Assembly (NCBI GenBank): GCA_964540065.1
Contig: CAZIKY010000004.1
Location: 16,306 to 80,305, forward strand
DNA from: Candidatus Woesearchaeota archaeon
Lineage (GTDB): Archaea; Nanobdellota; Nanobdellia; Pacearchaeales; JAHJTO01
Reading direction: 5' to 3'
Length of the DNA: 64,000 nucleotides
The notes below the pieces were generated by a model. It was not told the DNA's origin. It did not search any database and worked only from the letters and a program-made list of their open reading frames with translations. A program made the position numbers and the translations under genes. This document shows positions 21,060-63,101 of this stretch, piece after piece. Numbering within the stretch: position 1 is the stretch's first letter; every line of letters begins with the position of its first letter.

Positions 21060-22694
21060 TTAGTATTCAGGCATCCCGCCCATTCCGGGCATTCCCATTC
21101 CGCCTGCCGGTGCTGACGGGCTTTTTCCTGCCGCAACTACGTCATCTATCCTAAGAAGCATCATTGCAACTTCGCTTGCGCTTTTGATCGCCTGGGTTTT
21201 GATCTTTAAAGGTTCAACAACTCCGATTCTGAAGGTGTTTTCTATCTTTCCGTTGAAAAGGTTAAGGCCTGTTTCTCTTTCGCCATGGTCATGCCTTGCC
21301 TTGAGGGCCGTAAGCGTGTCTATCGGATCCATTCCGGCATTTTCTGCCAAGATCCTTGGGATGCTTTCAACTGCATCCGCGAACTGTTCTACTGCAAGCT
21401 GCTCTCTTCCCTGCGTGACAACTTCTTTTCTTAGTCTTCTTGCAAGCTCGATTTCAATTGCTCCGCCGCCCGCAACGACTTTTCCGTCTTGAAGTGTTGC
21501 TACAACATCTCCAAGGCTGTCTTTTATCGCGCGCTCGAATTCATCGATAACATGCTCTGTTCCGCCTCGGATTAGGATTGTCAATGCTTTTGGGTTCTTG
21601 CATTCTCTCACATAAGTCATTCCGGAATCTCCTTTTCTCACTTCTTCAACAGTCTTTGCATATCCCAAATCTTTGCTCTGGAGTTCCTGGATATTGCTTA
21701 CTATTCTTGCGCCGACTGCCTTTGCGAGCTTTTCCACATCGCTCTTGCTCACTCTTCTGAGCGCGTAGATTCTTTCTTTAGCTAAGTAATATTGCGCAAG
21801 ATCATCTATTCCTTTTTGGCAGATGAGGACATTTGCCCCGCTCTGCTTTATCTTGTTAACCATGTTCTTGAGAGTCCTTTCTTCCTGGTTTAAGAAAGCC
21901 TGGAACTGCTCTGGAGAGCTTATGCTTATCTTTGTGTCTGTCTCGGGAGACTTAATCTCCAAGGCAGCATCAACTATTGCGATTTTAGCATCTTTTACAA
22001 CCCAAGGCATGTCTGCGTGAACTCTTTCTTTGTCAAGAACGATTCCTGCAATGAGTTCCGTGTCTTCAACTCCTCCGCCTTTCTGTTTCTCTATCTTTAT
22101 ATCCCCCATATCTATTGAGACTTTTCCGTTATTGTCCTGCCTCATTATCTGCTTTACGGCCTTTAAGACAATGTTTGCAAATGAATCCTTTGCGGTTTCT
22201 GCAGACTTTCCAGTCATAGCAGTCATTGCAACATTTTTCAGGACCTGCTCATCTTTTATTGACACCGGCCTTGCGAGGCTATTTAGAATGCCTAAAGATC
22301 TTTCTGCAGCCAGCCTATAACCTCTTACAATTGCTGTAGGGTGTATTTTCTGATCCAGAAGCTTTTCTGCATTTTCTAAGAGCTTCCCTGCAAAGATGAC
22401 TGAAGTTGTTGTGCCATCTCCGACTTCGTCTTCCTGCGTCTTTGCGACTTCAACGAGCATCTTTGCTGCAGGGTGCTCTATTTCCATTTCCGATAGAATT
22501 GTTACGCCATCGTTTGTTATAGTTATGTCACCTATGCTATTCACCAGCATCTTGTCCATCCCTTTAGGCCCGAGAGTAGTTTTTACTGTGTCTGCCACCA
22601 TTCTAGCGGCTAGAATGTTATTTCTCTGTGCATCTCTTCCAATCATTCTTTGAATATTTTCAGGTAAAATGTAAATCGGTTGTTTTTCAGCCAT
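21060..22694 (-). CDS. thermosome subunit (group II chaperonin, Cpn60/TCP-1 family)
   Basis: 544 aa. N-terminus ([47 protein letters not shown]), the GDGTTT ATP-binding motif and the [12 protein letters not shown]-terminal tail are all present. Confidence 0.95.
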
Positions 22695-32280: not shown

Positions 32281-32413
32281 CCCTGTGTAGCTCAATGGTG
32301 GAGCTCTCGGCTGTAGCTCAAGCGTTAAGTTGACGTTCCTTTCAGGACGAGAATGATACTTAATCAGCCGAATGGAACCCGAGTGGTTGGCGGTTCGAGT
32401 CCGCCCGCAGGGA
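32281..32413 (+). tRNA. intron-containing tRNA, likely tRNA-Tyr (anticodon GTA) with ~61-nt intron at canonical 37/38
   Basis: Acceptor stem CCCTGTG/CGCAGGG with discriminator A. D-arm GCTC-AATGGTG-GAGC. Anticodon stem 5' half CTCGG plus loop CTGTAG are interrupted by about 61 nt (32317-32377) before the 3' half CCGAG. T-arm GGCGG-TTCGAGT-CCGCC. Confidence 0.7.
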
Positions 32414-41973: not shown

Positions 41974-42065
41974 TGATTAAAGAATATGCCTTTTAATTTA
42001 AACATTCCCTTTTTCCCTACAGCATTAACAAGATTTAAAAATCTACTTTTTCTTTAAAAGTTTGT

Positions 42066-42137
42066 GCCTCAATGGTGTAACGGCTAGCACGCAACCCTGT
42101 CACGGTTGTAGTCCGGGTTCGAAACCCGGTTGGGGCG
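42066..42137 (+). tRNA. tRNA-Asp (anticodon GTC)
   Basis: GCCTCAATGGTGTAACGGCTAGCACGCAACCCTGTCACGGTTGTAGTCCGGGTTCGAAACCCGGTTGGGGCG. Acceptor GCCTCAA/TTGGGGC, anticodon stem CAACC/GGTTG with loop CTGTCAC, T-arm CCGGG-TTCGAAA-CCCGG. Confidence 0.85.
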
Positions 42138-42138
42138 T
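42127..42138 (+). repeat. 12-nt tRNA-Asp 3'-end sequence (CGGTTGGGGCGT), first copy of a direct repeat
   Basis: The identical 12-mer recurs at 42899-42910, about 770 bp downstream. A possible att-site duplication. Confidence 0.4.
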
Positions 42139-43101: not shown

Positions 43102-45117
43102 ATGAATTCTTATAAACGCATGTTAAAAAAGAGGTTTATAGGTCTGATATCTGCTTTTGTTTTTCTGCTTGCAATTTCGGGATTTGCAAATGCTGCAACA
43201 TTAAACGTTAAGCATGATATTACAGTAAATATTCATGAAGATTCATCTTATGATTATGATCATGCATTTACATACAATCCCCGTGAGTATTACAAAAGCT
43301 TTTACTATTTCTTTATACCTGGTAGTTTCAATGATGTTTCTATTACTGCTGACGGAAAGCCTGTGACTATATCTGAAATTACTCCTCCACGATTTAAGGG
43401 AGGATTATTTAGCTACAAAATAATTTCTCCAAACCCCGAAAAGAGCAGTATTTCGGTAAGATTAAAAGCTACTGGAAAATTGATAGAGCTTAACGAAGAA
43501 GGCATTTACAAATTGGAAAATGTTGCTTACCCTGCAACATTTAATCCCTCAACAACAGAAGTTATAGAAATTTTTAATTATCCGAGATCCTGGGATGCGG
43601 TTGCGTACAATAGAGACATACCTTCAATAAATGCAGATAAAGGCCACAATTCGTTGGTACTTAGGTCTAGCGGCTTAAACTCTTTTGTAGGAGTCACTTT
43701 AGTTAATGAGAATGTTTCTGCTGGAATTGAAACTATTCGGAAAGGAGGAGTCACTTTAAAAGTTCAGAACCATTCAAAGCTTAAAGAAGCGGTAAGAATC
43801 GCTTCAGAGAATCTTAATTATGTAAGAAAATTAACTAACGGTGAAATCTTTATCTATGTAGATACTAGGACAGAAGAAGAGTATGGGGGGGCACTGCCTT
43901 CAGCATTTTATTCTTTAGATTCAGCAAGTGGATATATTGAAAACTCATTAAATTATGTCTCTCCGGAAGAAGCTTCTGCAACAATAATCCACGAACTAAA
44001 CCATTTCTCAAATGATGTTAATGATGCCGGGCCATTCCCCGTGTGGCTGGAAGAAGGATTGGCAGAAAATCAAGAATTAAAATATAGTTCAGACAAGTAT
44101 CCCTCTTATGCCTTCAAATCGATACCCCAGAAATGGCAATTGGAAGCATGGTATGGTGATGGAAGTTATTTTGGAGAAAGCAGACTTATAGAACTCCAAC
44201 CTATAGAAGATTACTTCCTATATGCTTTTGTTATAAGGCATTTTGAAGAGAAATATGGAAATGCCGCTTTAGAATCTGCATTATTAGAAATAAATCGTAG
44301 AATGAAAACTGAGAAGCCCGACTTTGAAGGTTTCGTTACTGAAGACTATCAAGAATTTTATGATAGGATAGCAACCGAAGTCTTTGCATCGAGAGTTGGG
44401 GGCAATAAAGAAGATTTCTTCTTCCCAGAAAAAGACCTATTCATTTCAGACCCCCATGCTTTTGAAGAGAAATTATCAAAATTTTACCGGAAGGATTGGA
44501 CTGCCAGAGAGGTTATGTTTGAATGTTTGAGTAATGGACAAGATCCCTTCGAATGTGAAGACCGAGTTTATGGGTCAAAAGCATTGATCGAATCACTCAG
44601 GCCACAGGCGTATATCGCATTCATTGAAGATTATGGCTCTACAAGCGAGGCCATAGAAGCAGGGTTTTTAGAATGGGAAAATAGCCCTGAAAAAGCAGAA
44701 TTAGATGCCGCATTAGAAGCAGAATTGGAAGAGTTTTATCAAAGCGAAATAGAGTCTACTTTCGGAATCGGGATCTTGACAGCAATACTTGCAATATTAA
44801 CATTATTTTTCCCGCATAAAGGCTATCGTAAAGAAATCAAAGAGCTAAAACAAAAAGGCATAAAACTTAAAATAAGGGCTATGATGGGAATTTTATCTTC
44901 ATTCATAGCGTGGATAATACCCTTTATGATATTATTGATGGGAACTACGGCAACATTCAGAGATGGAAGAATATTCTCTGGGATACTGATCATGCTTATA
45001 GCAGTATTTTTGACCCCAACCTTTCAAAAATATTTGAAGAAACAAGATCTTCCTGTCTCCGGTTGGGTTAGGGTAGGATTAGTTGTTCTATCCTTTGTTA
45101 TATTTATATACCTCTAA
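43102..45117 (+). CDS. secreted zinc-metallopeptidase-like protein (HExxH...E, gluzincin-type) with C-terminal TM helices
   Basis: 671 aa with a signal peptide and an HExxH...E pattern (IIHELNHFSNDVNDAGPFPVWLEEGLAE). The last ~100 aa contain 3-4 hydrophobic helices. Confidence 0.5.
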   Translation: MNSYKRMLKKRFIGLISAFVFLLAISGFANAATLNVKHDITVNIHEDSSYDYDHAFTYNPREYYKSFYYFFIPGSFNDVSITADGKPVTISEITPPRFKGGLFSYKIISPNPEKSSISVRLKATGKLIELNEEGIYKLENVAYPATFNPSTTEVIEIFNYPRSWDAVAYNRDIPSINADKGHNSLVLRSSGLNSFVGVTLVNENVSAGIETIRKGGVTLKVQNHSKLKEAVRIASENLNYVRKLTNGEIFIYVDTRTEEEYGGALPSAFYSLDSASGYIENSLNYVSPEEASATIIHELNHFSNDVNDAGPFPVWLEEGLAENQELKYSSDKYPSYAFKSIPQKWQLEAWYGDGSYFGESRLIELQPIEDYFLYAFVIRHFEEKYGNAALESALLEINRRMKTEKPDFEGFVTEDYQEFYDRIATEVFASRVGGNKEDFFFPEKDLFISDPHAFEEKLSKFYRKDWTAREVMFECLSNGQDPFECEDRVYGSKALIESLRPQAYIAFIEDYGSTSEAIEAGFLEWENSPEKAELDAALEAELEEFYQSEIESTFGIGILTAILAILTLFFPHKGYRKEIKELKQKGIKLKIRAMMGILSSFIAWIIPFMILLMGTTATFRDGRIFSGILIMLIAVFLTPTFQKYLKKQDLPVSGWVRVGLVVLSFVIFIYL

Positions 45118-49692: not shown

Positions 49693-49998
49693 AAACTGTT
49701 AGCCATCCAGGATATTAGTATGTCTTAAGCTCGCTTGTTTATAAACTTTATTATTTTATCACTTTGAAATGACACTTTAAATTGGGAAAAAACTTTTACC
49801 AAAATCCATTTCAACAATCCTTTTATAGCCCCTTTATTCATTTGAATCATGATAATTAGGATTGTTTCCTACAATGTGCTTCTGATCATTTCCCGGTTTG
49901 GGCAGACCTCGAGATACCCAAAAGATGCTAATATTGGTCTAATTTTTCTTACCAAAACATTTAAATAATTGTTGTCACCTAAAAATGAATACGGCACG

Positions 49999-52095
49999 AT
50001 GGGAAAGAGCCTTTTATCTTTAATTTTGGGAGCAGCTATTCCTTTGGGATTTGCTGCAAATATCAGTGCTTCTGATAGTTCCGCTAGTAATTCTAAAGAA
50101 GACAGCTGCAAAACTGCAAGCTATCAAGAGTTTGAAGGGGAAAATGACAGAGTTTCCAAGTTTTTCCAGACTTTCTCTGAAAAACCCGATGAAAAAGTTG
50201 ACAAACTCCTTGAAAAAGGAGAGTATGCTCATGCTTTGAGCTACATTGATAAAGTCGAAGGTGAATTAAACGGCCTTTCTTCACAGCTCAGGCTTCTGAA
50301 AGAAAAATATCCGGCTTTAGAATCGCTTTTTAAGAAGACCCTTCCGAATAATTTTGCGTTCCAGAGATGCAAAATAAAGACAGACAATGAGACTTTTAAT
50401 AAAGGGCAGCTGCTTTTGGACAAATCTGCCCACATTCTTACAACTTCCGACTGGAGTTTATCCGGAGATTTGACTGCTTATGAAAATGCATTAAGCACTG
50501 TTTCTGAAGTTGCGAGCCAATATGCCGGAATTTCCAGCTTAACTTTGAACCAGCTTGATGACGGCGAATTCAAATCCTTGGAAAAAAGGATTTCTGAAAA
50601 AGAGTTAAGTTTGGCTTCTGAGAAAGACGGAAGGCTGAAGTTTATTGAATTCTTAGCAGACAGCGGAGATGCTGTCGTTGAGATGTACAGCGTAGATTTC
50701 TCAGATTTGGATAAAGCAAGAGAAGCTGTTGAAATTTCCTCGGGGGTAATCAATCGTGCTAAAGGCATAATCTCTGAGTATAACCTTCAGCATAAGGAGA
50801 CAATGACTTCTGTCTCTCTATGGGAAAGCCAAAGGGAGAATCTTGTTAAAGGAATAGCCCTGAAAGAAGAAGAACTTCGATTAGAAAGGGAAGCAGTCAA
50901 GAAAGCTGAAGAGGCCGTCTTTGGAAAGGATGAAGTAGAAAATGGCTTGAAGGAAGAGCCAAAGGAAATTCTTGGCGTAGAAGAAAGAATCAAGAGAAAA
51001 GAAGAAAACATGCCAAGCTATAATCAGGCTCTAGGGTATGTTAAAACAGCAGATATGCTCAATAAAGAAGGAAATTATATCGGGGCAAGAGTATTCTATT
51101 CTAAGGCAAGGGAATTGCTTAAGAATTCGCAATCTAGGGAAGATTGGGAAAATACCTTGAACGATCTTGAAGGCAAGATTCATTCTAATGAAACTCAAAA
51201 AAGATTAAGCGATAAGCTTGAAATTGCAAGAAGGCAGAAGTTAGGCAAAAACGGATGGTATAACTTCGAATCAGCATATCATTTTGAAAGCTCCAAAGGA
51301 GATACTCGAGCTGAATTGTCCGGATTTACCAATGTTTTGGATCTTAGGCCAGTTTTCGCCTTGCCCAAATCAAAAAGATTCAACTTGGCTCCGATATTCC
51401 GCGCTGAGCAGGAAGTATTGAGCGGCGAAGCAGAGAATACTGCAAAGATTAATGAACGTTCTGAAAGATCTCTTGAATTAGGTTTAGGGCTTGGATTTAA
51501 AGGGACATATCTTTCTGCAGGAGCAGTTTGGCAAAACGCAAGCAGAGAAGTTGCTCCATATAATATCCCATTCAATATAACTTCAAACGCCTCTGAAAGC
51601 TCATTGGGATTGGGATTAAGGGCATGGACAAATTTCCTGCTCAATTCAAGGCTTGAAGTAGCCTACAGGCAGGCATCTGGAAATCTTGATGAAGAGACAT
51701 ACAGAAATGGTACTTTAACTAAACAAACTTCATCCCCATTAGAGACCCAAAGATTCTCATTAAGCGGGCAGGTCAGCCCGGTTGAGAGCCTTACCTTGGG
51801 ATTAAATTATGATCATCTCTCCAAGGAAGTGAGAAGGGCAACTTCAAAATCAGATAGTAAGAGCGATATATTGAAATTTTCTGTTTACGCCACCCCATTC
51901 AACCTTATTCCTAAAGGTTATATCCCAAAATCAAGAGCAGGGAGAGGCTTCTTAAACGAGCTTAGGCAATTAGGCTTTGGAGGATCATATTCCAAGAACA
52001 GATTTACCGGGGGAGATTCTGAAAGATACTCTTTGGAGTTCAGATATCCTCTTAAGCAGCCGTTAAGAAGAGATAGTTCAAAAAATGAAAATTAA
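49999..52095 (+). CDS. secreted coiled-coil protein with beta-strand-rich C-terminal domain
   Basis: Signal peptide (MGKSLLSLILGAAIPLGFAANISA), a long Lys/Glu coiled-coil middle and a C-terminal ~300 aa with alternating hydrophobic and Gly patterns (LELGLGLGF, SLGLGLRAW, LTLGLNY). Overlaps the next gene by 11 nt. The ORF track begins at 49969; the ATG at 49999 is preferred because the signal peptide starts there. Confidence 0.5.
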   Translation: MGKSLLSLILGAAIPLGFAANISASDSSASNSKEDSCKTASYQEFEGENDRVSKFFQTFSEKPDEKVDKLLEKGEYAHALSYIDKVEGELNGLSSQLRLLKEKYPALESLFKKTLPNNFAFQRCKIKTDNETFNKGQLLLDKSAHILTTSDWSLSGDLTAYENALSTVSEVASQYAGISSLTLNQLDDGEFKSLEKRISEKELSLASEKDGRLKFIEFLADSGDAVVEMYSVDFSDLDKAREAVEISSGVINRAKGIISEYNLQHKETMTSVSLWESQRENLVKGIALKEEELRLEREAVKKAEEAVFGKDEVENGLKEEPKEILGVEERIKRKEENMPSYNQALGYVKTADMLNKEGNYIGARVFYSKARELLKNSQSREDWENTLNDLEGKIHSNETQKRLSDKLEIARRQKLGKNGWYNFESAYHFESSKGDTRAELSGFTNVLDLRPVFALPKSKRFNLAPIFRAEQEVLSGEAENTAKINERSERSLELGLGLGFKGTYLSAGAVWQNASREVAPYNIPFNITSNASESSLGLGLRAWTNFLLNSRLEVAYRQASGNLDEETYRNGTLTKQTSSPLETQRFSLSGQVSPVESLTLGLNYDHLSKEVRRATSKSDSKSDILKFSVYATPFNLIPKGYIPKSRAGRGFLNELRQLGFGGSYSKNRFTGGDSERYSLEFRYPLKQPLRRDSSKNEN

Positions 52096-55000
52096 GACCA
52101 ATAAAGGCGAATGGAAAACCTTGAAGGCTTTCGCATCAGTGTTAATCCTTTTAGCTGTAGTTCCTGGAGTTCTTGCAGCTTTGATAACTCCTTCAAATCC
52201 AGACACTACCGCCAATCTTGCATTTGATATTTCAAACCCTTCGCAATATGTCTATAAATGGTTTAGAGATGGGGTGGAACTTTCGGGAGAAACTGGCTCA
52301 ACTTTGAGCTCTTCATACACTTCTAGGGGGAATACCATCCTTGCAGAAGCTTACTTGAATATTTTAGGAGATTTGGTCTTCATCGATAATGCCCAAACAA
52401 CCATAGTCAATGCTGTTCCTTCAACCCCTACAGTTTATTTCTCTCAAAACAGTTATTTTGCGGATTCAAACATTACTGTTACTGCATCAAGCACCGATGC
52501 AGATAATGATGCCTTGACTTACACTTACACTTTCTATGTTAATGGGTCTTCTACTCCTTCCCAGAACTCCACTTCCAATGTCTTTAACTGTCTAGGGAGC
52601 TGCAATAAAGGCGGAACTGTAAGCGTTACAGTAGTTGCTAATGATGGTTTTACTAATTCCAATTCAGCAAGCAATCAGACTTCAATAGTTAATTCTCCCC
52701 CGGTTATTGGTTTAATTACGGTTTTGCCAAGCACGGTTTTGATCAATAGCACACTTAATGTTACGGCAAGCGTGCTTGATGTTGATGGAGATAACCTCAC
52801 AACAACTTTCCAGTTTTACAACTTGAATGATTCTTCAGTTTTGCAGAACTTCTCTAGCAATAATCTGCTTAATCTTTCGATAAATGATGCCCATAATACC
52901 ATAAGGGTTACAGTTAACTCCACTGATGGAGCCAATGTTACTTCAAGCTTCACAGATGTTGTAGTCTCTAACTCTTTGCCTCTTTGGAGCTTGGGAAATT
53001 TGAGCTTTAACCAAGATACAAATCTTTCAGTTAACTTTTCCGGAAATGTTTCTGATCTTGAGAATGATAGCCTTAATTTCAGCGCGGTTGGTTCCCAGAA
53101 TATTACTGCAAGTCTTAATGGAACTACTTTGACACTTGTTCCAGACAGCGGGTTTATCGGAACTCAGACAGTAAACTTGACTGCTGATGATGGGTTCGGG
53201 AACAGCACACAAGTTTTATCTATAACAGTTTTTGATACAACCCCTCCGGTGCTAAACATTACTGCCCCAACTAATGGACAGCTTTTCAACACTACAAATA
53301 ACGTGACTTTAACATTTACTGTTTCAGACAATGGGGTTCTAGATACTTGCAGATACACCTCTTCATTTGATTCCGGAGGTAATTTGAACTGCACCCTTGG
53401 AAGTTACAACTTTACGAATATGGTTAATGGGAATCATTCTGTGACTGTTTTTGCAAATGATTCAAGGGGAAACTCAGCCAATCAAACAGTTAACTTTACA
53501 GTTAACTTCAACTCCGCCCCTTCAATTGCTTCCTTGAATTTAACTCCAAGCTCTCCAACCACTGCCAACAACTTAAATGCCACATTCAACTTAACAGATG
53601 TTCAGCAGACTTCGCTTACTGCTTTCTATAATTGGTATAATAATGGAGTATTGAACCAAAGCGGAAGCACAAGTGCAACAAGCGGAGCCTTGGCTTCAGT
53701 AATTCTAAGCTCTGGAAATACATCTAAAGGCCAAAATTGGACCTTTGAACTGATCCCTTCAGATGGATTGCTAAATGGAACTGCTCAGAATGTTAGCCTT
53801 GTTGTTGTAAATACTGCCCCTACTTCTTCAAACATTTCCGCACAGACTTGGCAGGAAAATCAGAATTTGACTTTGAACTTGAGCTTATATTTCAGCGATG
53901 CTGATTCAGATGACCTAAGTTTCACAAGCACAAGCCCTGCAAACATCACTGTTTTGATAAACAACTCGACTAATACTTTAACTTTAGTCCCTGATGCTAA
54001 TTTTGTCGGAAAGAGAAACTTAACTATTACGGGATTTGACACTGAAAATGCAAATGTTACTAGCAATACATTCGATCTTTATGTCGGTTTCAGCGTGGTT
54101 ATCAATTCTTATGTAAATGGAACTTTTTATCCTACGGGAAACTATACAAATATCGCGGGATTGGAAACTTCCACTTTGAATGTTTCCAATATAACTGGCC
54201 CTACAATCAGTGTTTTGGATTCTACAATAACCAACTCCACAATAGTTGACTCATCTATGAATAACTGCACCGTTACAGACAGCACAGTTATTGGATCTCC
54301 TTGCTTGAATGCAGTTATTGATCCTTCTGATGTAAGATACAGCAATGCCACAGGAAGCACAGTTTTGGATTCCACAATACATTACAGCAATGCAACAAAT
54401 TCGTTTGTCAATCAGACTTCGATCTACAATTCAAGCATTGATGGCTCAAACATGACTCTTGCAACTTTGACAAATGTTACTATGACTGGATCAACCGTGT
54501 TGAACAGCACATTGAGCAATACAGTTATTGGAAGCGCAAACATAACAAATGGAGTGGTTTACAGCGGAACAATCTTGATGGCTAATGGTTCTACTTACAA
54601 TGCAACTTCTCAGGGCGCCTTGAATTTGACCTCTGCAGTCAATTATGCTCCGAATGCTGTGATAAGCTCCCCGATCTCCGGAAGCTTTAACACTGGAAGC
54701 GCGATTTCATTTGTTTCCGGAAGCACAGATTCAAATGTCGGAGGGTCATTGAATGATACATTGACTTTCTTCTGGAATTTCGGGGACGGAACAAATGCAA
54801 CCACTGAAAATGCCACACATACTTACTCGAGCGATGGAGTTTACACTGTCGTCTTGACAGTTACAGACAGATTTAATTCCACAGATAATGCTACGGTCAC
54901 CTTAACCTTATCCACGCCTTCTTCCGGAAGCGGAGGCAGCGGAGGCGGAGGCGGTGGAGGAGGCGGAAGCAGCACTCCCGCAGTATTTACAGTAACCCTT

Positions 55001-55507
55001 ACAGAACCGGTTTCAAAAGATCTGTCTGTTGGACAATCAATATCCTTCGACTTCTTGGGAGAGAAGCATTCAGTTACCTTAGAACAAGTAACTCAGACTA
55101 ATGTAAGAATTAAGGTACAATCTACTCCAGTATTTGCCACTTTGGCTGTGGGGGAGACGGGCAAGTTTGACCTGAATGGGGATGGAATTTATGATCTTGC
55201 AGTTACCTTAGAACAGAGGCTTTCCAGCCTTAAGGCTAAGCTTAAGTTTGCATTGATCTCTGAACCGATAGAAAAAGCCGAAGTAAAGGAAGAGCCTAAG
55301 GAAGAAGAGAAAGTGGAAGAGACTGAAGAAACAGAAGCCGAGGAAACCCAAACTGAAGAAGAAACTAAGTTCGATTTCAAGTCTTTGACTGGAAAGGTTA
55401 CAGAAACTTTATCAAAGGTCTCTAAGAATACTTGGATTTCAGTCGGGGCAGTTGTAGCCTTGTTAATACTTACATTTTTACTTTATAGAGTACTTTACTC
55501 TAATTAG
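52085..55507 (+). CDS. giant cell-surface protein (1140 aa): Asn/Ser/Thr-rich, Ig-like/beta-helix-like repeats, PKD domain, Gly linker, acidic stalk, C-terminal TM anchor
   Basis: Features, in order: a signal peptide; dense N-x-S/T sequons; a repeated LTLVPD(S/A)xF(I/V)G module (two copies); parallel beta-helix-like NxT/NxS repeats; a PKD signature (FWNFGDGTNATTENATHTYSSDGVYTVVLTVTD); a GSGGSGGGGGGGGG linker; an EEKVEETEETEAEE acidic stretch; and a C-terminal TM (ISVGAVVALLILTFLLY). Confidence 0.6.
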   Translation: MKIKTNKGEWKTLKAFASVLILLAVVPGVLAALITPSNPDTTANLAFDISNPSQYVYKWFRDGVELSGETGSTLSSSYTSRGNTILAEAYLNILGDLVFIDNAQTTIVNAVPSTPTVYFSQNSYFADSNITVTASSTDADNDALTYTYTFYVNGSSTPSQNSTSNVFNCLGSCNKGGTVSVTVVANDGFTNSNSASNQTSIVNSPPVIGLITVLPSTVLINSTLNVTASVLDVDGDNLTTTFQFYNLNDSSVLQNFSSNNLLNLSINDAHNTIRVTVNSTDGANVTSSFTDVVVSNSLPLWSLGNLSFNQDTNLSVNFSGNVSDLENDSLNFSAVGSQNITASLNGTTLTLVPDSGFIGTQTVNLTADDGFGNSTQVLSITVFDTTPPVLNITAPTNGQLFNTTNNVTLTFTVSDNGVLDTCRYTSSFDSGGNLNCTLGSYNFTNMVNGNHSVTVFANDSRGNSANQTVNFTVNFNSAPSIASLNLTPSSPTTANNLNATFNLTDVQQTSLTAFYNWYNNGVLNQSGSTSATSGALASVILSSGNTSKGQNWTFELIPSDGLLNGTAQNVSLVVVNTAPTSSNISAQTWQENQNLTLNLSLYFSDADSDDLSFTSTSPANITVLINNSTNTLTLVPDANFVGKRNLTITGFDTENANVTSNTFDLYVGFSVVINSYVNGTFYPTGNYTNIAGLETSTLNVSNITGPTISVLDSTITNSTIVDSSMNNCTVTDSTVIGSPCLNAVIDPSDVRYSNATGSTVLDSTIHYSNATNSFVNQTSIYNSSIDGSNMTLATLTNVTMTGSTVLNSTLSNTVIGSANITNGVVYSGTILMANGSTYNATSQGALNLTSAVNYAPNAVISSPISGSFNTGSAISFVSGSTDSNVGGSLNDTLTFFWNFGDGTNATTENATHTYSSDGVYTVVLTVTDRFNSTDNATVTLTLSTPSSGSGGSGGGGGGGGGSSTPAVFTVTLTEPVSKDLSVGQSISFDFLGEKHSVTLEQVTQTNVRIKVQSTPVFATLAVGETGKFDLNGDGIYDLAVTLEQRLSSLKAKLKFALISEPIEKAEVKEEPKEEEKVEETEETEAEETQTEEETKFDFKSLTGKVTETLSKVSKNTWISVGAVVALLILTFLLYRVLYSN

Positions 55508-55515
55508 GAGATAAA

Positions 55516-55809
55516 ATGGCGATAGATTTAGATCATTTGGCTTATGACGTTGCAAATTTTGCACATAGTTCTTGGGAGCCTACCAGCATAGATGCAATAA
55601 TTCGCGGCCCAAGACCGTATTATTACTGCTGGACTGAAAAGGAAGGAATGGATATCCTTACTTTTACTGATCCAAGCAAACCTGAAACAGCAAAACTTTT
55701 CAGATACAGCCATAGACAGATCAGAAAAGGAGCAGATTTGGCTAATGATAAGCCAAAGCTTACCGGAAAGGAGGTTGTAAGGTTCTTAAGAGAATACTTG
55801 AAGAAATAA
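55516..55809 (+). CDS. hypothetical protein (operon member 1 of 5)
   Basis: 97-aa ORF starting 9 nt after the giant surface-protein gene and abutting the next ORF. Confidence 0.4.
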   Translation: MAIDLDHLAYDVANFAHSSWEPTSIDAIIRGPRPYYYCWTEKEGMDILTFTDPSKPETAKLFRYSHRQIRKGADLANDKPKLTGKEVVRFLREYLKK

Positions 55810-56328
55810 ATGGGATTGGAAGGAAAAATGCGCGCAGATGAAATTGTGGAAAAAGCAAATATGTCATGTCGTCCGGAATATTACAGCGGCCGAGGTGCAA
55901 CATCAAGCGACCTTAACGATAGAATATTAGAAAATATCTATAAAGAGGTCGAAAAAGAGCATGGAGAAAAGGCTGCAGGACAATTTGCCCAGATGGTAGC
56001 AGATATTCCAAAATTATCTGCGACAGATTTCTTGCTTACACTATACAGATTAGAGGCCCATGATTGGAAATGGGATAAAATGTTATTGGGCAGAGAAAAA
56101 GGAGTTTATCTTGATGGAAAAGATATGGGTGCAAAGGTTGGTAGTGGTATTGGAACAATTGTAAGTGTTTTTGGCGGCCTTAATGACCGAGATGAAACCA
56201 GGTATATTCGCGGAAGATTTTTAGAAAGGCATGGAATCCGGCAGCCAGAGGATATAAACGGCCCTTATGGAAGTCAACCTTACCGAGACGTTCAAAGACA
56301 TAGATCAAAGAAAACTAGGAGAAGATAA
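55810..56328 (+). CDS. hypothetical protein (operon member 2 of 5)
   Basis: 172-aa ORF with a basic C-terminal tail. Confidence 0.4.
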   Translation: MGLEGKMRADEIVEKANMSCRPEYYSGRGATSSDLNDRILENIYKEVEKEHGEKAAGQFAQMVADIPKLSATDFLLTLYRLEAHDWKWDKMLLGREKGVYLDGKDMGAKVGSGIGTIVSVFGGLNDRDETRYIRGRFLERHGIRQPEDINGPYGSQPYRDVQRHRSKKTRRR

Positions 56329-56329
56329 A

Positions 56330-56758
56330 ATGGGAATAATGGATATGGGAGATGGAAGAATATATCAGACCGGCCCTGATGGAGAAATGAAACCTATTCA
56401 TCCCGAGAACTTTTCGCTTTCAATACAGGACAGAAAGATTGCAGAATATGACAAGAATAAAGGCCTTCTATCTTTAGATATGAGTGAGGGAGATTTAGAG
56501 AAACTTATTGCAATGTTAGGAATTACGCCTAAAGGAAAGGATATTTCTCTACCTCTGCCTCCATTCGGACATCAGCAGTATTTTGAGGGAGTCAGAGAGA
56601 TGAAATCCCTTTACAAAGAAGGCCCATATACAATAAAATTAGTTGATGGAGATGGACAAAATCCTTCTGATAATAAATCGAATTCAACTCCACAAACAGC
56701 TAGATATCAAGATAAGCCTAAAGGCTTATTTGATCGATTAAGAGACTATTTTAAGTAA
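56330..56758 (+). CDS. hypothetical protein (operon member 3 of 5)
   Basis: ATG at 56330, 2 nt after the previous stop (MGIMDMGDGRIYQ...). The ORF track begins at an upstream in-frame alternative start at 56267. Confidence 0.4.
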   Translation: MGIMDMGDGRIYQTGPDGEMKPIHPENFSLSIQDRKIAEYDKNKGLLSLDMSEGDLEKLIAMLGITPKGKDISLPLPPFGHQQYFEGVREMKSLYKEGPYTIKLVDGDGQNPSDNKSNSTPQTARYQDKPKGLFDRLRDYFK

Positions 56759-56759
56759 A

Positions 56760-57164
56760 ATGGTGCAAAGTTTAACATTAATGATTGAAGGGGAAATAAC
56801 CCAAAAAATATTAAATGAAATCAATTTGAAAGTAACTCCAGATTACATAAAGAAAAAACTAAAACCTCTAAAGAAGTTAGAAAAGGAATGTGATGGATGC
56901 AGGTTTACAATAAGAGATTGCGCAGATTCTTATGCTAGGGGGATCCCAACAGAAGATGATACCTTAAAAAGAACCCCTGAAGGATTTTACGGCCTGGCTT
57001 CTGGATGCCAAGTTTACAGTAAGATTGTAGTCAAAGCAATTGCGTTGAAGGGAATTCAGGAAGTTCTCAAGAGTAATGGGATAAAATCCAGAATGGGCTA
57101 TTGGGATATTGATGATTTCAGCCGAAAGTATCTTGTCCATCAGGGAGTCATAAGGGAAAGATAA
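56760..57164 (+). CDS. hypothetical protein with Cys cluster (operon member 4 of 5)
   Basis: 134 aa with CDGCRFTIRDC...C. Confidence 0.4.
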   Translation: MVQSLTLMIEGEITQKILNEINLKVTPDYIKKKLKPLKKLEKECDGCRFTIRDCADSYARGIPTEDDTLKRTPEGFYGLASGCQVYSKIVVKAIALKGIQEVLKSNGIKSRMGYWDIDDFSRKYLVHQGVIRER

Positions 57165-57165
57165 A

Positions 57166-57579
57166 ATGAGCAGATTGAAGGAATTGCTTGACTCAGAATT
57201 GAAGGACAAAAGCTCTTCGCATGTTCCTGTAGAGAGATTGGTCCAGACTGTTGGGGAGAAAGAGAGCTTCATCAGACTCGGAAGAGGGCTTTTTTATCCG
57301 GATGTCGGAGTTTATGGGGACTGGTCTGAAAAAGAGAAAGAAGTCGTCAGAAAAATTATGTTCGCCAGAGAGCAAGGGCATTCCCTGGGCCATGAATTTG
57401 GAAGGGCAATGACCGGATACGATGATCCTAATGTTGCCAAATATAAAGAAGCTTACTCTGCTATTGATTCTCTAAGTCCGGGAGATCTGGCTAAAGTCAA
57501 AGTTGAAGAAAAGGAATATTTTATTGCGGCTTTTCCTGCTGGAGGGCCCGCAACCGCTTTGGCGTTATTTGTAAAGTAA
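57166..57579 (+). CDS. hypothetical protein (operon member 5 of 5)
   Basis: 137-aa ORF, 1-nt spacing from the previous gene. Confidence 0.4.
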   Translation: MSRLKELLDSELKDKSSSHVPVERLVQTVGEKESFIRLGRGLFYPDVGVYGDWSEKEKEVVRKIMFAREQGHSLGHEFGRAMTGYDDPNVAKYKEAYSAIDSLSPGDLAKVKVEEKEYFIAAFPAGGPATALALFVK

Positions 57580-57600: not shown

Positions 57601-58566
57601 TCAGAACATCTCGATCTCGTTTCTTATGTGCACGATGTCATAGCTCCTTATGATATCTGAGAAATTTTCTTTCAAAGCGTGCATCAATTCCAAGATGTCA
57701 TTGTAATTATCAACGACTATGTCAAATTCAAGCATGTATCGGCTCATGACTTCGCTTATCTTTATGACTTTGACATGATCCAAGAGATGCTTCTTTAGCT
57801 CCTCAAACCTTTTTTTGTCGTAGATGAAAGGATCTAAAAGGATCTTATAATGGACCTTGCCTATCTTCCTCCAGTCAACTCTTACTCCGTATCCTTTTAT
57901 CAGCTGGGCCTGCTCCATCTTTTTCATCCTTCTTATGATTGTCTTTGGATCTGTGTTCAGCTTTGAGGCCAAAGTGACATAATTTACCTTGAAAGTCCCT
58001 TCTAATTCTCTAATTATCTTCCAATCTTTCTCATCCAAGGTTATCTTTTCCTGTTTGTTCTTCCATGAAATCTCTGTACTGCCTTTTTTGCCCCCAAAAA
58101 GGCTGTATGAAAGGTAATTCCTTTTGACTATTATGTCAAAATGATCTTCCAGTATGTACTTTCCGTATTTTTCCTCTAAAGATAGTACTAAATCATGCAG
58201 ATTGTTTATGTTATTGGTAGCAATTTCAATAACTAAGTCGAAATAGTTGTCCACTTGGTAAATTCTTTTGACATCTTCTTTCTTTTTTATGAAGTCGATT
58301 ATTTCTTGCTCCTTTTTTGGGCTTGCGTTGCTTAGTTTTATTAAAACTCTTATCCAATTGGAATATAGCTGGGTGTAATCGATTATTGGAACGAAGTTCT
58401 TGATTATCCCCTCTTTGATCAGCTTGTTTATGTTGTAGTGGATAACTTGCTTGCTCTTGTTAAGCATCTTTGACATCCGAGGATAGCTCATTCTGCTGTT
58501 TATGCTTAATAGGTGCAGGATATCCTGTTCAGTCTTGGTTAATGCCATATTGTAATAAAATGGCAT
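57601..58566 (-). CDS. tandem-duplicated Lrp/AsnC-type transcriptional regulator (two HTH + two effector-like domains)
   Basis: Two HTH_AsnC-like segments: DILHLLSINSRMSYPRMSKMLNKSKQVIHYNINKLIKEGII and DWKIIRELEGTFKVNYVTLASKLNTDPKTIIRRMKKMEQAQLI. Each is followed by a ~90-aa domain. Confidence 0.55.
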   Translation of the reverse strand: MPFYYNMALTKTEQDILHLLSINSRMSYPRMSKMLNKSKQVIHYNINKLIKEGIIKNFVPIIDYTQLYSNWIRVLIKLSNASPKKEQEIIDFIKKKEDVKRIYQVDNYFDLVIEIATNNINNLHDLVLSLEEKYGKYILEDHFDIIVKRNYLSYSLFGGKKGSTEISWKNKQEKITLDEKDWKIIRELEGTFKVNYVTLASKLNTDPKTIIRRMKKMEQAQLIKGYGVRVDWRKIGKVHYKILLDPFIYDKKRFEELKKHLLDHVKVIKISEVMSRYMLEFDIVVDNYNDILELMHALKENFSDIIRSYDIVHIRNEIEMF

Positions 58567-58662: not shown

Positions 58663-58974
58663 ATGAAAATGATGAAAAAAATTGGACTAATCGGACTGCT
58701 TGGAGTAGCGGCAGTTTCTGGTTCCGGATGCACTAAGAATGATATATCTAAGATTGGGGAAGATGTTAAAATTACTCGACCAGAAAACTGTGCAACTGTG
58801 CAGGATCTCAGATATGAATTCGGTTACGCGAATAGAGATTATCAAATTCTATGCAAAGATAAAAGCGGCAATCTAGCACTCTATAGGAGAGATAGAAGTG
58901 AAGACTCCTGGACTAAGATTTATGTAGCTGATGCAGAATACGGAGCTGCAAAATGCCAGGAGGATGGGAGATAA
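58663..58974 (+). CDS. small lipobox-containing secreted protein
   Basis: 103 aa with a signal peptide ending AAVSGSGC (lipobox-like) and four further Cys. Confidence 0.45.
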   Translation: MKMMKKIGLIGLLGVAAVSGSGCTKNDISKIGEDVKITRPENCATVQDLRYEFGYANRDYQILCKDKSGNLALYRRDRSEDSWTKIYVADAEYGAAKCQEDGR

Positions 58975-58975
58975 A

Positions 58976-60085
58976 ATGGCAAGCAAAAAACAAAGTCACG
59001 AATTTGAAGGAAATGAAAGTGGAGATGCTCCCTTAAAGAAGAGCCTCTTGGAGAAAGTTCTTACTTATACTGGCGGAGCGATCTTAGGAGGAACAATTTT
59101 CCTTGGAACTTGTGTCAGCTACGTCAAGCCGGATCACTTTGGAATAAAACAGGTGGAGATGTCTCCATTTGGATTGCTCGGAGGCAAGGGAATCCATAGT
59201 GAAGTTTATGACACTGGATATCATGTAGTCCTGCCTTTGTTTGAAAAAATGCATATGCTTCCAAAAGATAAGCAAGTGCTTTACTTGAACCGAGAAAAAG
59301 GATTGACTGCTGAGGAGCAGAAGTATTCCACTGAAGTGGCTCCTGCAAACATTCAGACTTCTGATGGGTTCTACATTACATTAGATGCTTCCATCATTTA
59401 CAAGATAAAAGATCCTTACAAGGTTATCACGACTCTTGGAGCTGGAAGGCTATTTGAGCAGAATGGAATAATTCCAAAAGCAGAGCCTGCTTTAAAGGAA
59501 GCTTTGGGAATAATGAATCCCGAAGATTTTTACAACAGCCCGCTTAGGGTCGAGAAGCAGGAGACTGCTAAAGACTTGCTTAATCGGCTGCTTGAACCAA
59601 AAGGTGTGCATGTGGAACATGTCTTGATAAGATACCCCGAATACCATAAAGAAGTTCAGGCTAGAATTGAAGGAAGGAAACTTCAAGACCAGCTAGTCTA
59701 CACTAACCAGTCAAAGGCAAAGGAAAGATCTGCGCAGGCGCAGTTCCAGAAAATGACTGAAGAAGGTCTTGCTGATAAAAAAGTCAAGGAAGAAGAAGGA
59801 AAAGCTTACATTACAATGAAAAACGCAAGCCGAGACCTTTACACCAGAAAGAAAAAGGCGGAAGCCGACAAGCTCGTTAAGTTAGCTGAAGCTAAGAGAA
59901 CCGAGCTCGTGAATGAAGCTTACAGAGGAGAAGGTTCAGAGAAGCTTCTTGGTATGGAAATGGCTGAAGTGCTTAAGGGAGTAGATAATGTCATCATAAC
60001 TACTGGAAAAGAGCAGGGATTCAACCCTCTCGATCTTGAGAGTTTGATGAAGATGTGGAATATCAAAGATGGAGGAAAAAAGTAA
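58976..60085 (+). CDS. SPFH/band-7 domain protein (HflK/stomatin-prohibitin-like)
   Basis: Start taken at the ATG (MASKKQ...) preceded by GGAGG. The ORF track begins upstream at 58931. It has a TM helix, then an SPFH core (FGIKQVEMSPFGLLGGKGIHSEVYDTGYHVVLP...ITLDASIIYKI) and a coiled-coil tail. Confidence 0.7.
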   Translation: MASKKQSHEFEGNESGDAPLKKSLLEKVLTYTGGAILGGTIFLGTCVSYVKPDHFGIKQVEMSPFGLLGGKGIHSEVYDTGYHVVLPLFEKMHMLPKDKQVLYLNREKGLTAEEQKYSTEVAPANIQTSDGFYITLDASIIYKIKDPYKVITTLGAGRLFEQNGIIPKAEPALKEALGIMNPEDFYNSPLRVEKQETAKDLLNRLLEPKGVHVEHVLIRYPEYHKEVQARIEGRKLQDQLVYTNQSKAKERSAQAQFQKMTEEGLADKKVKEEEGKAYITMKNASRDLYTRKKKAEADKLVKLAEAKRTELVNEAYRGEGSEKLLGMEMAEVLKGVDNVIITTGKEQGFNPLDLESLMKMWNIKDGGKK

Positions 60086-61214
60086 AATGAATAAAGAATC
60101 AATTAAGGAATATGTAATAAATGCTTTTGAGAGGGTTATGAAAAATCCTAAAGCAGTCATTGGGGGAGCAATAACTGCTCTTTCTCTGGCATACTTTGTT
60201 GCGGGTTCGATACACAAAACAGGAACCACAGAAATAGGTGTCAGGACTAGGAAAGTAAGCTTGTTCAACAAGAAAGGAGTAGAACAGAGAATCTACCAGC
60301 CCGGATCGACATACTTCTTCCCGCCATTGATAAATGACTGGACTACTTATGACACCAAATTAGTCAATGTAGAGATGAATGCAGACACTAATGAGGGAAA
60401 TGTTGGAGTTTCAGATGACCTGGCTTTTAAGACAAGAGATGGAAATGATATCAATCTGGATGTTGTCTTCTCTTACAGGATAGATCCTGAGAAAGCTCCG
60501 CAGATACTTCAATATGTTGCTTCCTCTTCGGACGAACTTGAAAATAAGATCTTCTGGGCAGTTGCAAGGAGCAAGCCTAGAGATATCTTTGGGGAACTTT
60601 CTTCTGAGGAATTCTATCAGGCAGAGAAAAGAAATGAGTCTGCCGAGAAGGCGAAGAAAGAGCTTGAGAAAATCCTTCAGCCTTATGGGGTTATAATTGA
60701 GAAGGTTGCACCTAAAGATTACAGGTTCAATCCAAGGTATGCTGAAGCTATCAAAGACAAGAAACTTGCTGATGCAAAGACTCTGGAGTATCTTTCTCAG
60801 ACAAATGCGCAGAAAGAAGAGAATGTAAGGCTTTTGAGAGAAGCGGAAGGTTCGGTGAATGAGATGATTGCGAAGGTAGATGGAGCTTACAAGCAGGCAG
60901 TGCTTGAAGCAGATGCTTACTATAATCAGCAGCAGAAAATTGCGGAAGCGATAATTGCTGAAGGGCAGGCTGAAGCGAAAGCAATAAAGGCCGCGAGAGA
61001 AGCGATGACCAGCACTGGGGGAAGCACTTTAGTCAAAATGAAGATTGCTGAAAATCTTAAGGGAAAGAAAATCATAATGGTTCCAACAGGATCCCAATCT
61101 GGTGGAGGAATAAACTTCCAGACTTTGAATGTGAATGATTTCCTTAAGACTTACGGGGCGAAAACCCTTGCAGATGAAGCTGAGCAGTCAACTGCTACGC
61201 ACAAGAACAAGTAA
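60069..61214 (+). CDS. SPFH/band-7 domain protein (HflC-like partner)
   Basis: 381 aa with TM - SPFH core (TEIGVRTRKVSLFNKKG...LDVVFSYRI) - coiled coil. Overlaps the previous gene; an alternative start is the ATG at 60087. Confidence 0.7.
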   Translation: MEEKSKMNKESIKEYVINAFERVMKNPKAVIGGAITALSLAYFVAGSIHKTGTTEIGVRTRKVSLFNKKGVEQRIYQPGSTYFFPPLINDWTTYDTKLVNVEMNADTNEGNVGVSDDLAFKTRDGNDINLDVVFSYRIDPEKAPQILQYVASSSDELENKIFWAVARSKPRDIFGELSSEEFYQAEKRNESAEKAKKELEKILQPYGVIIEKVAPKDYRFNPRYAEAIKDKKLADAKTLEYLSQTNAQKEENVRLLREAEGSVNEMIAKVDGAYKQAVLEADAYYNQQQKIAEAIIAEGQAEAKAIKAAREAMTSTGGSTLVKMKIAENLKGKKIIMVPTGSQSGGGINFQTLNVNDFLKTYGAKTLADEAEQSTATHKNK

Positions 61215-61234
61215 GGAGATAGGAGAAGAAGAAA

Positions 61235-61516
61235 ATGGAAATGAAAAGAACTATTAGAAATATGGGGCTGACAGGTTTGGCAGCAATTGCTTTTTCAGGA
61301 TGCGGACTTGTTGAGAAATATTATGAAGAAGTTAATTACGAAACTTTGACAAATGCTAAAGGCCGAATTGAGCTTTATTCCGGCGGGAAGCTTGTCAAGG
61401 AATTCAAAGACAGCAAGATTATTTACTCTAATTCTGACAGCGAAGCGCTGTATTTTAAAGACTCAGCTGGGAAGACGCATTATTGGCAAGGCGAGGCTTA
61501 CATAGAGTTAGAATAA
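61235..61516 (+). CDS. small lipobox-containing secreted protein
   Basis: 93 aa with signal peptide ...AAIAFSGCGL. Confidence 0.4.
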   Translation: MEMKRTIRNMGLTGLAAIAFSGCGLVEKYYEEVNYETLTNAKGRIELYSGGKLVKEFKDSKIIYSNSDSEALYFKDSAGKTHYWQGEAYIELE

Positions 61517-61586
61517 ATGATAAAGATATTATTCTTAAGTAGTAACAAATAGCAAGGTTTAAATAGGTTATAAATTTTGAGATAAA

Positions 61587-63101
61587 ATGGCAAGATATGA
61601 AAAAGAAGAGAAGGGGCAACTTTGGGAAAGCGGCACTTTCAGAGTAGATGAAGTTCAAAGAAAGAAAACTCTTGAAGCCCAGATGGAAGCTATCCAAAAA
61701 TATGGAATGAAAGTGCATGAAGGCTTTCAAAAGATTTTAACTAATTCTCAAACAAGACTTCGAAGAACATCTGTTGAGGTCTTCTTGGGGGCTTTAATGC
61801 TTGGCTCTCTCGGAGGATATTTGGGACACAGGGCTGAATCTGCAAGGGATAAACTCCTGCCTGTAGCTTTTTCCGAGATAAGCCAAATAAAAGATATCTC
61901 TGCCCAGAAAGGCGAAACTGTCGATCCATTCACTAACTATTATGCTGGCTTGAATGATATGACTATGAAAGTATTCGAATCATGGAATGACTCTTGGAGA
62001 TCAAGCAAGAGCGATAAAGACGCTTATAATAAATTTGCAGAGAGGCTTAATGAAAGTTTGATGGAGCACAAGTACAAAAACAACTTGACAGACTTTCTTG
62101 ATTCTGTACCTAAAGATGCGGATCTTGCATTAAGAAGCCTGTCGGGATTTATCCGTTCTGGCGATAGAATGCGCACAGTTAATGGACATTTTTCAAGTGC
62201 TTGGAAAGAGCACCATAAAGATAACTACCATACAGAGTTAAGAACAAGATTAGTTACAACTACTGATGCGGATGGAAACATCTCTATGGATACAGAGACT
62301 TATCTGGAATCGGTTTATGATGATACAACCCACACTTATACTTACAACAAAAACGAAGGTGAAGCTGCTTCGGTTACTTTGGATAAAGTTCTTTTAGATT
62401 TTCAGGGCTTGTCCAGTAAGATGGGTAAAATGGAGGCATTAAAAGTTCAGGAGCCAAATAGGAATGCGATCAGATCCAGCAGGAAATTAAAGAAAGGGAA
62501 AGATTTAACCAAGGGAGAATATTTTTCTATAGCAAGCACTTGGAGAACAGGGTCTAATTTTTACTCAAATAGGTCTACTTTTTCTGACCCTTGGAGCCAT
62601 CTTAGCTCAGATGCCTCAAACTGGAGAAGAGCTAAAAAAACTTCCAGAAACCACCAATATAAGACCACTAGCTCTCGGGATGCCGGACCGGAAGAATTCA
62701 GAATTGCAAGATCAGCATTGTCTCATGGGCAGAATTTTGTGAACAAAGTTGATGAAGTAGTCAATGGCATGGGGCATGCTATGCAGCAAACTCCCGTGCT
62801 TAGGCAGAAAATACATGATTTTGTCGGGAAAACATTTTCCCCCAGCGATTATAAAAATGGAAAATTCGATCCTAAGAAAGAAGCTTATGCGATAAAAGAT
62901 TTGGCAAGCGACCTTTATCAGAAAAACTTCAAGGGAGGCTTTGATGTTAAAGGCTATCGTGTGGGTGCTGCTATGCTTTACGGATTATTTGGACTGCTTG
63001 CAGGAATTGGATTGGGGGCTGCAGTTGATTCTCTTGCAGATAAATATCAATTATGGGGAAAAAGAACTGCAGGAGATTACTTCGGCTCGGGCAATTATTA
63101 A
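61587..63101 (+). CDS. hypothetical protein with C-terminal TM anchor
   Basis: 504-aa ORF ending with a Gly-rich hydrophobic helix (AAMLYGLFGLLAGIGLGAAV). Confidence 0.45.
   Translation: MARYEKEEKGQLWESGTFRVDEVQRKKTLEAQMEAIQKYGMKVHEGFQKILTNSQTRLRRTSVEVFLGALMLGSLGGYLGHRAESARDKLLPVAFSEISQIKDISAQKGETVDPFTNYYAGLNDMTMKVFESWNDSWRSSKSDKDAYNKFAERLNESLMEHKYKNNLTDFLDSVPKDADLALRSLSGFIRSGDRMRTVNGHFSSAWKEHHKDNYHTELRTRLVTTTDADGNISMDTETYLESVYDDTTHTYTYNKNEGEAASVTLDKVLLDFQGLSSKMGKMEALKVQEPNRNAIRSSRKLKKGKDLTKGEYFSIASTWRTGSNFYSNRSTFSDPWSHLSSDASNWRRAKKTSRNHQYKTTSSRDAGPEEFRIARSALSHGQNFVNKVDEVVNGMGHAMQQTPVLRQKIHDFVGKTFSPSDYKNGKFDPKKEAYAIKDLASDLYQKNFKGGFDVKGYRVGAAMLYGLFGLLAGIGLGAAVDSLADKYQLWGKRTAGDYFGSGNY

Follow-up and report, generated by a model that had tools for sequence, protein, structure and literature searches.

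Five tightly spaced small genes behind a PKD surface-protein gene on an archaeal contig: probably unrelated, uncharacterised families in a lineage-specific arrangement

Introduction

In operons whose stop and start codons abut or overlap, the downstream genes are translated by termination-reinitiation, and in the classic cases the partners serve one complex or pathway and are kept together across genomes. Five small open reading frames (ORF1 to ORF5) with spacing of this kind lie at positions 55516-57579 of the 64,000-nucleotide stretch of DNA analysed here (the window; contig CAZIKY010000004.1, positions 16,306 to 80,305), behind a gene for a large surface protein with PKD domains. They share with classic coupled operons the TAA-ATG and TAA-A-ATG junctions, a common orientation and the lack of intergenic promoters, but differ from them in that the partners are not found together elsewhere and that 27% of the co-directional gene pairs in the window are equally tight. 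An earlier note on this DNA had described the five as a compact, translationally coupled module.

The closest described system for ORF2 is a 'hypothetical protein' family of DPANN archaea, exemplified by Q8N63_06075 and Q8O84_01625 (Nanoarchaeota), WC916_04230 and J4464_02410 (Woesearchaeota) and J4477_01115 (Pacearchaeota). At 50-64% identity, ORF2 falls within this family as a full-length member, with the RPEYYSGRGA loop and the LSATDFL and RDETxxIRxxF motifs. Unlike the other members, it adds a basic tail and sits in a coupled string; elsewhere the gene is alone. ORF4 resembles zinc-ribbon and other four-cysteine proteins in having a CxxC knuckle, invariant in four members of its family, but this family lacks a second ligand pair. 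A likeness to metal-dependent phosphohydrolases of the HD_4 or RelA-SpoT type arises only through a fusion protein, P0040, which is a single, G+C-rich case of probably bacterial or phage origin; the ORF2 of the window has no HD domain.

Results and Discussion

The five families are not neighbours in other genomes

We consider it probable that ORF1 to ORF5 encode small soluble cytoplasmic proteins from five unrelated, uncharacterised families, and that their placement side by side is peculiar to this lineage and does not mark a conserved functional module. The arrangement is taken as lineage-specific because each family occurs alone in other genomes. The five genes, with lengths in amino acids (aa), are as follows.

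ORF1, 55516-55809, + strand: 97 aa, isoelectric point 8.7, soluble
ORF2, 55810-56328, + strand: 172 aa, with the C-terminal end RHRSKKTRRR
ORF3, 56330-56758, + strand: 142 aa, acidic, soluble, without cysteine
ORF4, 56760-57164, + strand: 134 aa, basic, with cysteines at residues 44, 47, 54 and 83
ORF5, 57166-57579, + strand: 137 aa

The coordinates and the spacing of 0-2 nucleotides (nt) given in the earlier note were correct: one junction is TAA-ATG (0 nt) and three are TAA-A-ATG (1 nt), with GATAAAATG as the repeated junction motif between the small ORFs.

About 110 homolog loci were fetched, and their six-frame ORFs were searched with hidden Markov models (HMMs) of four families and, for ORF3, by phmmer and jackhmmer. 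ORF2 was represented by loci L003-L009, the viral loci L013-L020 and the metagenome loci L029-L108, with 72 non-redundant loci for ORF2 in all, ORF5 by L010 and L021-L028 (nine loci in five distinct genomic contexts), ORF1 by L012 only and ORF4 by L011 only. None of these loci held two of the five families together, with the sole exception of L035, a 1-kb metagenome contig where 145 nt separate an ORF3-like gene (36-386) from an ORF2-like gene (531-959) on its 3' side, in the order opposite to that in the window. The ORF1 homolog on L012 is followed by no ORF2 relative; on L011 the gene after the ORF4 homolog is convergent and unrelated, and no ORF5 relative is present. The nearest ORF5 relatives (57-58% identity) stand alone, with an unrelated gene 163-206 nt upstream. 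A further relative, at 54% identity, is flanked by a PolB gene and by other core genes on an archaeal contig of 459 kb, and ORF5 homologs are set among core genes such as those for PolB and ribosomal protein S10. For ORF2, no Pfam family appeared more than twice among the 118 proteins flanking the 72 non-redundant genes, and the neighbours are as diverse as ribosomal protein L11, EF-Tu, TFIIB, FtsZ and glycosyltransferases. What survives of the compact module is thus a set of real, tightly coupled genes without annotated function, whose families, L035 excepted, are not neighbours elsewhere.

In the window the five genes close a longer string. Seven packed co-directional genes run from 49969 to 57579, namely a 708-aa gene, the PKD gene and ORF1 to ORF5, and the string is bounded on its 3' side by a convergent regulator gene whose stop codon lies 21 nt from that of ORF5. 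The PKD gene overlaps the 708-aa gene by 11 nt and ends 8 nt before the start of ORF1. The flanking genes are listed here.

708-aa gene, listed from TTG 49969, + strand: secreted or coiled-coil protein; ATG 49999 is the probable true start
PKD/Big_9 surface-protein gene, 52085-55507, + strand: 1140 aa; Pfam PKD_4, Big_9 and PKD; C-terminal membrane anchor
Lrp/AsnC-type double regulator gene, 57601-58566, - strand: 321 aa; convergent with ORF5

The earlier note had suggested that the five genes might co-occur with PKD surface proteins in other genomes. No such association was found: searches (tblastn) of all homolog loci with the 1140-aa PKD protein, the 708-aa protein and the Lrp-like protein gave no match at E ≤ 1e-4, so that no relative of any of the three was detected in any homolog locus, and a census of the neighbours of the ORF2 loci showed no recurrent PKD domain.

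These results bear on a competing explanation, in which the genes form a functional module confined to this lineage, possibly together with both surface proteins. In one possible form of it, the products would make up a cytoplasmic complex for the biogenesis, anchoring or signalling of a host-contact PKD protein, with coupling setting the stoichiometry. We regard such a module as unlikely. It would agree with the seven co-directional genes separated by gaps of at most 8 nt, with the run of four junctions of ≤1 nt against a background of 13 of 48 pairs in the window, and with the adjacency of ORF3-like and ORF2-like genes on L035. It is opposed by the remaining, roughly 110, homolog loci, none of which pairs two families, by the lack of a PKD or 708-aa relative near any homolog, by the stand-alone position of the closest ORF5 relatives behind their gaps of 163-206 nt, and by the unrelated housekeeping genes that adjoin members of the ORF2 family.

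Gene spacing was evaluated against the rest of the window, where 13 of the 48 co-directional neighbour pairs are separated by ≤2 nt and 20 of 48 by ≤10 nt. Taken singly, a tight junction is therefore unremarkable here, stop-start abutment being a general habit of this compact genome, and the tight spacing is weak evidence of shared function among ORF1 to ORF5.

Several points nevertheless weigh against independent families brought together by lineage-specific juxtaposition. Four tight junctions in a row are unusual (roughly 0.27^4), and a run of four consecutive ≤1-nt junctions, rarer than the background, fits selection for co-expression. The pairing on L035 means that ORF3 and ORF2 may be functionally tied. 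The genomic context of ORF1 and of ORF4 comes from one short contig each, a thin sampling. The proteins of the window that were found in the collection are all singletons at 90% identity, so the comparison excludes close relatives; a module kept only among such relatives would be missed, since none was available. Finally, the ligand proposed below for ORF2, which is held with low confidence, draws on the character of a motif, one fusion and one neighbouring gene, and is accompanied by no fold match.

Expression of the string

Because four tight junctions in a row are unusual, co-transcription and coupled translation of the small genes are a reasonable reading of the arrangement. The 708-aa gene, the PKD gene and ORF1 to ORF5 are probably one transcription unit. 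Transcription of the five small genes would begin either at the 708-aa gene, making them the tail of this seven-gene unit, or at a TATA-like element within the final part of the PKD gene. The two candidate elements are given below.

TATA-like TTTAAATAA, ~49961-49969, + strand: putative promoter element, roughly 30 nt 5' of ATG 49999
TTTATA hexamer, 55482-55487, + strand: in the 3' end of the PKD gene, ~30 nt 5' of the ORF1 start

The first of these, TTTAAATAA near 49961, could speculatively be assigned as the promoter of a seven-gene operon, and its distance to ATG 49999 suggests a leaderless or short-leader transcript. Translated from this ATG, the 708-aa protein begins MGKSLLSLILG and has a signal-peptide-like N-terminus. 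Similarly speculative is a role of TTTATA at 55482-55487 as an archaeal promoter internal to the string, which would serve the five small genes; in a genome of 60% A+T, hexamers of this type turn up often. At the TAA-ATG and TAA-A-ATG junctions, translation would proceed by termination-reinitiation, possibly helped by purine-rich GGAG-like motifs 5' of ORF1, ORF3 and ORF5.

The five ORFs as genes

For codon usage, 29 long ORFs from the window served to train a model, and scores were expressed as a log-likelihood in bits per codon. In the annotated frame all five ORFs scored +0.22 to +0.42, compared with 0.34 ± 0.06 for the training genes, and for each of them all five alternative frames scored negative. 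In alignments of ORF1, ORF2, ORF4 and ORF5 with homologs, nucleotide identity is highest at codon position 2, lower at position 1 and far lower at position 3; the values at positions 1/2/3 are 0.68/0.76/0.37 for ORF1 against L012 and 0.67/0.81/0.37 for ORF5 against L025. This is the classic pattern expected of purifying selection, and we read all five ORFs, with confidence, as genuine protein-coding genes. The earlier note had allowed that coding signal or conservation might prove to be lacking; instead, frame-specific codon usage was found for five ORFs and the mark of purifying selection for four. All five products are predicted to be soluble, with no signal peptide or membrane segment in any of them.

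Among the five, conservation is weakest in ORF3, whose C-terminal third is of low complexity and probably disordered. Together with the fact that its only match among the 150 listed (see below) is its own public gene call, this is what could be said for treating ORF3 in particular, or others of the ORFs, as chance open frames in an A+T-rich spacer. Such an origin is very improbable, given that ORF3 scores +0.31 per codon in its own frame and negative in all others, has the TAA-A-ATG pattern at both ends and has a homolog on L035 (36-386; 32% identity over 117 aa, pairwise E 1e-12), and that the other four ORFs have many conserved homologs. The L035 gene, a chance find, is the single homolog detected for ORF3.

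Homologous N-termini also bear on the start codons. An earlier in-frame ATG at 56267, used by the public call P0005, would extend ORF3 to 163 aa and make it overlap ORF2 by 62 nt. The first residues of the L035 relative align with the methionine at 56330, and an AGGAG motif lies 9-13 nt 5' of that position; a start at 56330 is accordingly preferred here as the likelier of the two. For ORF4, the public call P0006 is 127 aa long and starts at Met-8 (56781), whereas all relatives start MVQSLTL or MVQNLRL, as does the product from ATG 56760. The N-termini of the homologs, and likewise the recurrence of the GATAAAATG motif at the junctions, thus support the coupled starts (56330 and 56760) over those of the public gene calls.

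Database searches

Searches of Pfam-A, NCBIfam and PHROGs gave no significant match for any of the five proteins, the best E being 0.02 or worse, and the anti-phage defence models of PADLOC-DB matched none of them at E ≤ 1. The statement in the earlier note that nothing similar was recognisable did not withstand an exhaustive HMMER search, in which a 682-aa concatenation of the five proteins was compared with 1.84 billion cluster representatives (clusters at 50% identity). This returned 492 matches at E ≤ 1e-3, mostly to ORF2, 258 of them at E ≤ 1e-10. The best 150 of the 492, which are those listed, fall to ORF2 (about 131), ORF1 (6), ORF4 (3) and ORF5 (7), and among them ORF3 has none except its own public gene call. 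The same concatenated query gave zero matches in a word-index protein search, an artefact of the method; as it gave 492 in the exhaustive search, the zero is not evidence that the proteins are orphans.

The five families are mutually unrelated, with every pairwise hhalign probability at or below 1.2%, a result that also rules out ORF1 to ORF5 as diverged paralogs. PDB sequence searches with ORF2, ORF4 and the profiles A1, A3 (the ORF4 family) and A4 produced chance-level matches only. Scans of viral contigs with ORF1, ORF4 and ORF5 (the last as a single-protein scan) found zero relatives, and a JGI metagenome scan with ORF4 found zero loci. A literature search brought up nothing specific to the five families.

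The few homologs of ORF1, ORF4 and ORF5 span identities of 36-58%. ORF1, from a small family, has at least six homolog clusters among the 150 best matches listed, at 46-57% identity, with GPRPFYYRW and TAKLFRY as conserved motifs. ORF4, whose family is rare, has three clusters among the matches listed, at 38-42% identity. Its CxxC (C44 and C47) is invariant in all four family members and the KLVVKAIALRGIQEVL segment is conserved, while C54 and C83 are confined to the copy in the window, the homologs having Thr or Leu at position 54 and Ala or Glu at position 83. The cluster of four cysteines remarked on in the earlier note is therefore present, but its conservation extends to the first two only. 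A four-ligand zinc-ribbon or zinc-finger was considered for ORF4 and rejected, since only C44 and C47 are conserved and no zinc-ribbon Pfam model matches. In the preferred explanation, ORF4 brings a single conserved CxxC knuckle, ORF5 is predicted to be compact and alpha/beta, and ORF3 is perhaps loosely tied to ORF2.

The ORF5 family is small and is marked by the motifs GDWSxxEK, GHEF and PGD(I/L)A(K/R)V and by the C-terminal end LVLFVK. A profile search added five closer relatives at 54-58% identity. The structural model of ORF5 is of high confidence, compact and alpha/beta, and no PDB relative was found for its fold. A zincin-type metalloprotease was considered on the strength of GHEF and dropped when the test for HExxH with a conserved second histidine failed. 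On L024, two tandem, diverged ORF5 paralogs (625-1092 and 1102-1569) share 40% and 31% identity with the ORF5 of the window. They lie in a run of small unannotated genes, and genes for NrdR and ribonucleotide reductase adjoin on the longer contig of this sequence.

The ORF2 family

A word-index search with ORF2 retrieved 187 proteins, all named 'hypothetical' and without Pfam domains, and the HMM of the family matches the ORF2 of the window over residues 1-153 (E 4.7e-68). Members are all-helical proteins of about 150 aa. In an alignment of 58 members the N-terminal loop reads M-S-x-R-P-E-[FY]-Y-S-G-R-G-A-x-x-x-D-L and is followed by L-S-A-T-D-F-L and then by R-D-E-T-x-x-I-R-x-x-F. S26 is invariant in these 58 and P22, G27, R28, G29 and D34 are conserved in ≥90%. 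The window copy has all the invariant and near-invariant residues (P22, S26, G27, R28, G29, D34, T72 and F137). Its strongly basic C-terminal tail, RHRSKKTRRR, which had drawn attention in the earlier note, is indeed there, but it is peculiar to this copy and absent from homologs. A 39-residue ORF2 match in an Arachnia metagenome-assembled genome (MAG; L001) was unconfirmed by the family HMM and discarded as spurious.

The AlphaFold model of ORF2 is all-helical, with a mean pLDDT of 82.9 and values above 92 over residues 11-90, and in it the N-terminal SGRG loop packs on the helical bundle. Foldseek found no match for the model in BFVD, and the ORF2 profile matched PDB sequences at chance level, so that no PDB relative was found. 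When the 58 family members were scanned one by one, no consistent curated family emerged, and the phage-encoded members had no PHROG match. The structure screen proposed in the earlier note was worth doing, with confident models for both ORF2 and ORF5 and no PDB relative for either.

Some members have additional domains. P0040 (311 aa) joins the ORF2 domain to a C-terminal HD_4 domain (Pfam E 3.5e-11; phrog_990 E 5.9e-36); P0025, P0056, P0089 and L020:9254-10462 have an N-terminal extension of ~220 aa with CxxC...CxxC and no Pfam family; and P0049 has a C-terminal helix-turn-helix-like region. At the phage locus L016, a MazG-cytidylyltransferase gene lies directly 5' of the ORF2-family gene. 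The HD_4 fusion and this neighbour are weak hints of a link between ORF2 and nucleotides. From the residues of the motif, we suggest with low confidence that the SGRG loop may be a binding site for an anionic ligand (a nucleotide, a phosphate group or nucleic acid, for example). Under the preferred explanation ORF2 is a member of a large, stand-alone helical-bundle family of DPANN archaea and huge phages, in which the loop would serve this ligand.

A bolder proposal would make new folds of ORF2 and ORF5 and would have ORF2 act as a new nucleotide- or nucleic-acid-binding module in virus-host or symbiont-host conflict. In this lineage, ORF2 would have drawn ORF3 and the other small proteins into a dedicated, jointly expressed complex that is coupled to the surface protein used in host contact. 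We think this proposal quite improbable.

Members of the ORF2 family are encoded on eight IMG/VR contigs (L013-L020), five of which are 225-405 kb long. The largest, L014 (IMGVR_UViG_3300050821_002957, 405,631 bp), carries its ORF2 homolog at 10001-10474 and capsid genes at 14721-17633, and as the latter encode the major capsid protein Gp23 along with a scaffold protein of T4 type, it is a genuine T4-like huge phage. The four others are 225-365 kb. A tblastn search of GenBank phages with ORF2 gave no match. In archaea, ParE, PIN, Bro-N, Fic or HNH genes are sometimes found near ORF2-family genes.

The presence of the family on huge phage contigs, these occasional archaeal neighbours and the small, tightly packed, unannotated ORFs, which are typical of viral gene blocks, raise the prospect that the five genes are left over from, or were brought in as cargo by, a virus or mobile element integrated behind the surface-protein gene, with early-gene-like ORFs, some of them engaged in virus-host conflict. 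This is distinctly unlikely. The block has a G+C content of 0.39-0.41, like the remaining window, with no shift, and its codon usage is indistinguishable from that of host genes. Its neighbours encode surface, Lrp-like, SPFH and Macro proteins, and no integrase, flanking tRNA or other mobile-element hallmark was seen among them; flanking direct repeats were not explicitly searched for. PADLOC and PHROG matches are absent for the five proteins, ORF1, ORF4 and ORF5 have no relatives on viral contigs, and the homologs of ORF5 sit among core genes.

Host and genomic context

The window is archaeal, as indicated by a thermosome gene (21060-22694) and an intron-containing tRNA. The latter is a 133-nt tRNA at 32281-32413 (+ strand), matched by Rfam at 50.8 bits and missed by ARAGORN, which presumably is an intron-containing archaeal tRNA. 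The named relatives of ORF2 come mostly from MAGs of Nanoarchaeota, Woesearchaeota and Pacearchaeota, which makes a DPANN host likely; the host is probably a DPANN-type archaeon of the Woesearchaeota/Pacearchaeota/Nanoarchaeota group.

The convergent 321-aa regulator has two winged helix-turn-helix units (HTH_24 and HTH_AsnC; residues 9-56 and 177-218) and a weak match to one AsnC ligand-binding domain at residues 74-129. Beyond it, positions 58663-63101 (+ strand) form a second co-directional string, made up of the following genes.

Lipoprotein-like 103-aa ORF, first of the string, + strand
SPFH/Band 7 genes, 58931-60085 and 60069-61214, + strand: overlapping by 17 nt
Lipoprotein-like 93-aa ORF, 61235-61516, + strand: the second such ORF in the string
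504-aa ORF, within the string, + strand: without Pfam matches

Elsewhere in the window, the G+C content falls to 0.33-0.35 between 42000 and 46000, compared with about 0.40 elsewhere, directly after tRNA-Asp (42065-42138). This region contains a 671-aa ORF (43102-45117) without a Pfam match, and may be an island inserted at tRNA-Asp.

Meaning of the locus

With independent families as the preferred reading, what had been suspected to be a new system becomes an ordinary, genome-specific operon of independent conserved-hypothetical genes, of a kind usual in DPANN genomes, and nothing in the data points to a specific new mechanism. The ORF2 family itself comprises at least 250 clusters (50% identity, E ≤ 1e-10), has no Pfam, NCBIfam or PHROGs model and is common to DPANN archaea and huge phages. 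It would therefore be reasonable to curate the ORF2 and ORF5 families and to study both proteins by structural or biochemical means.

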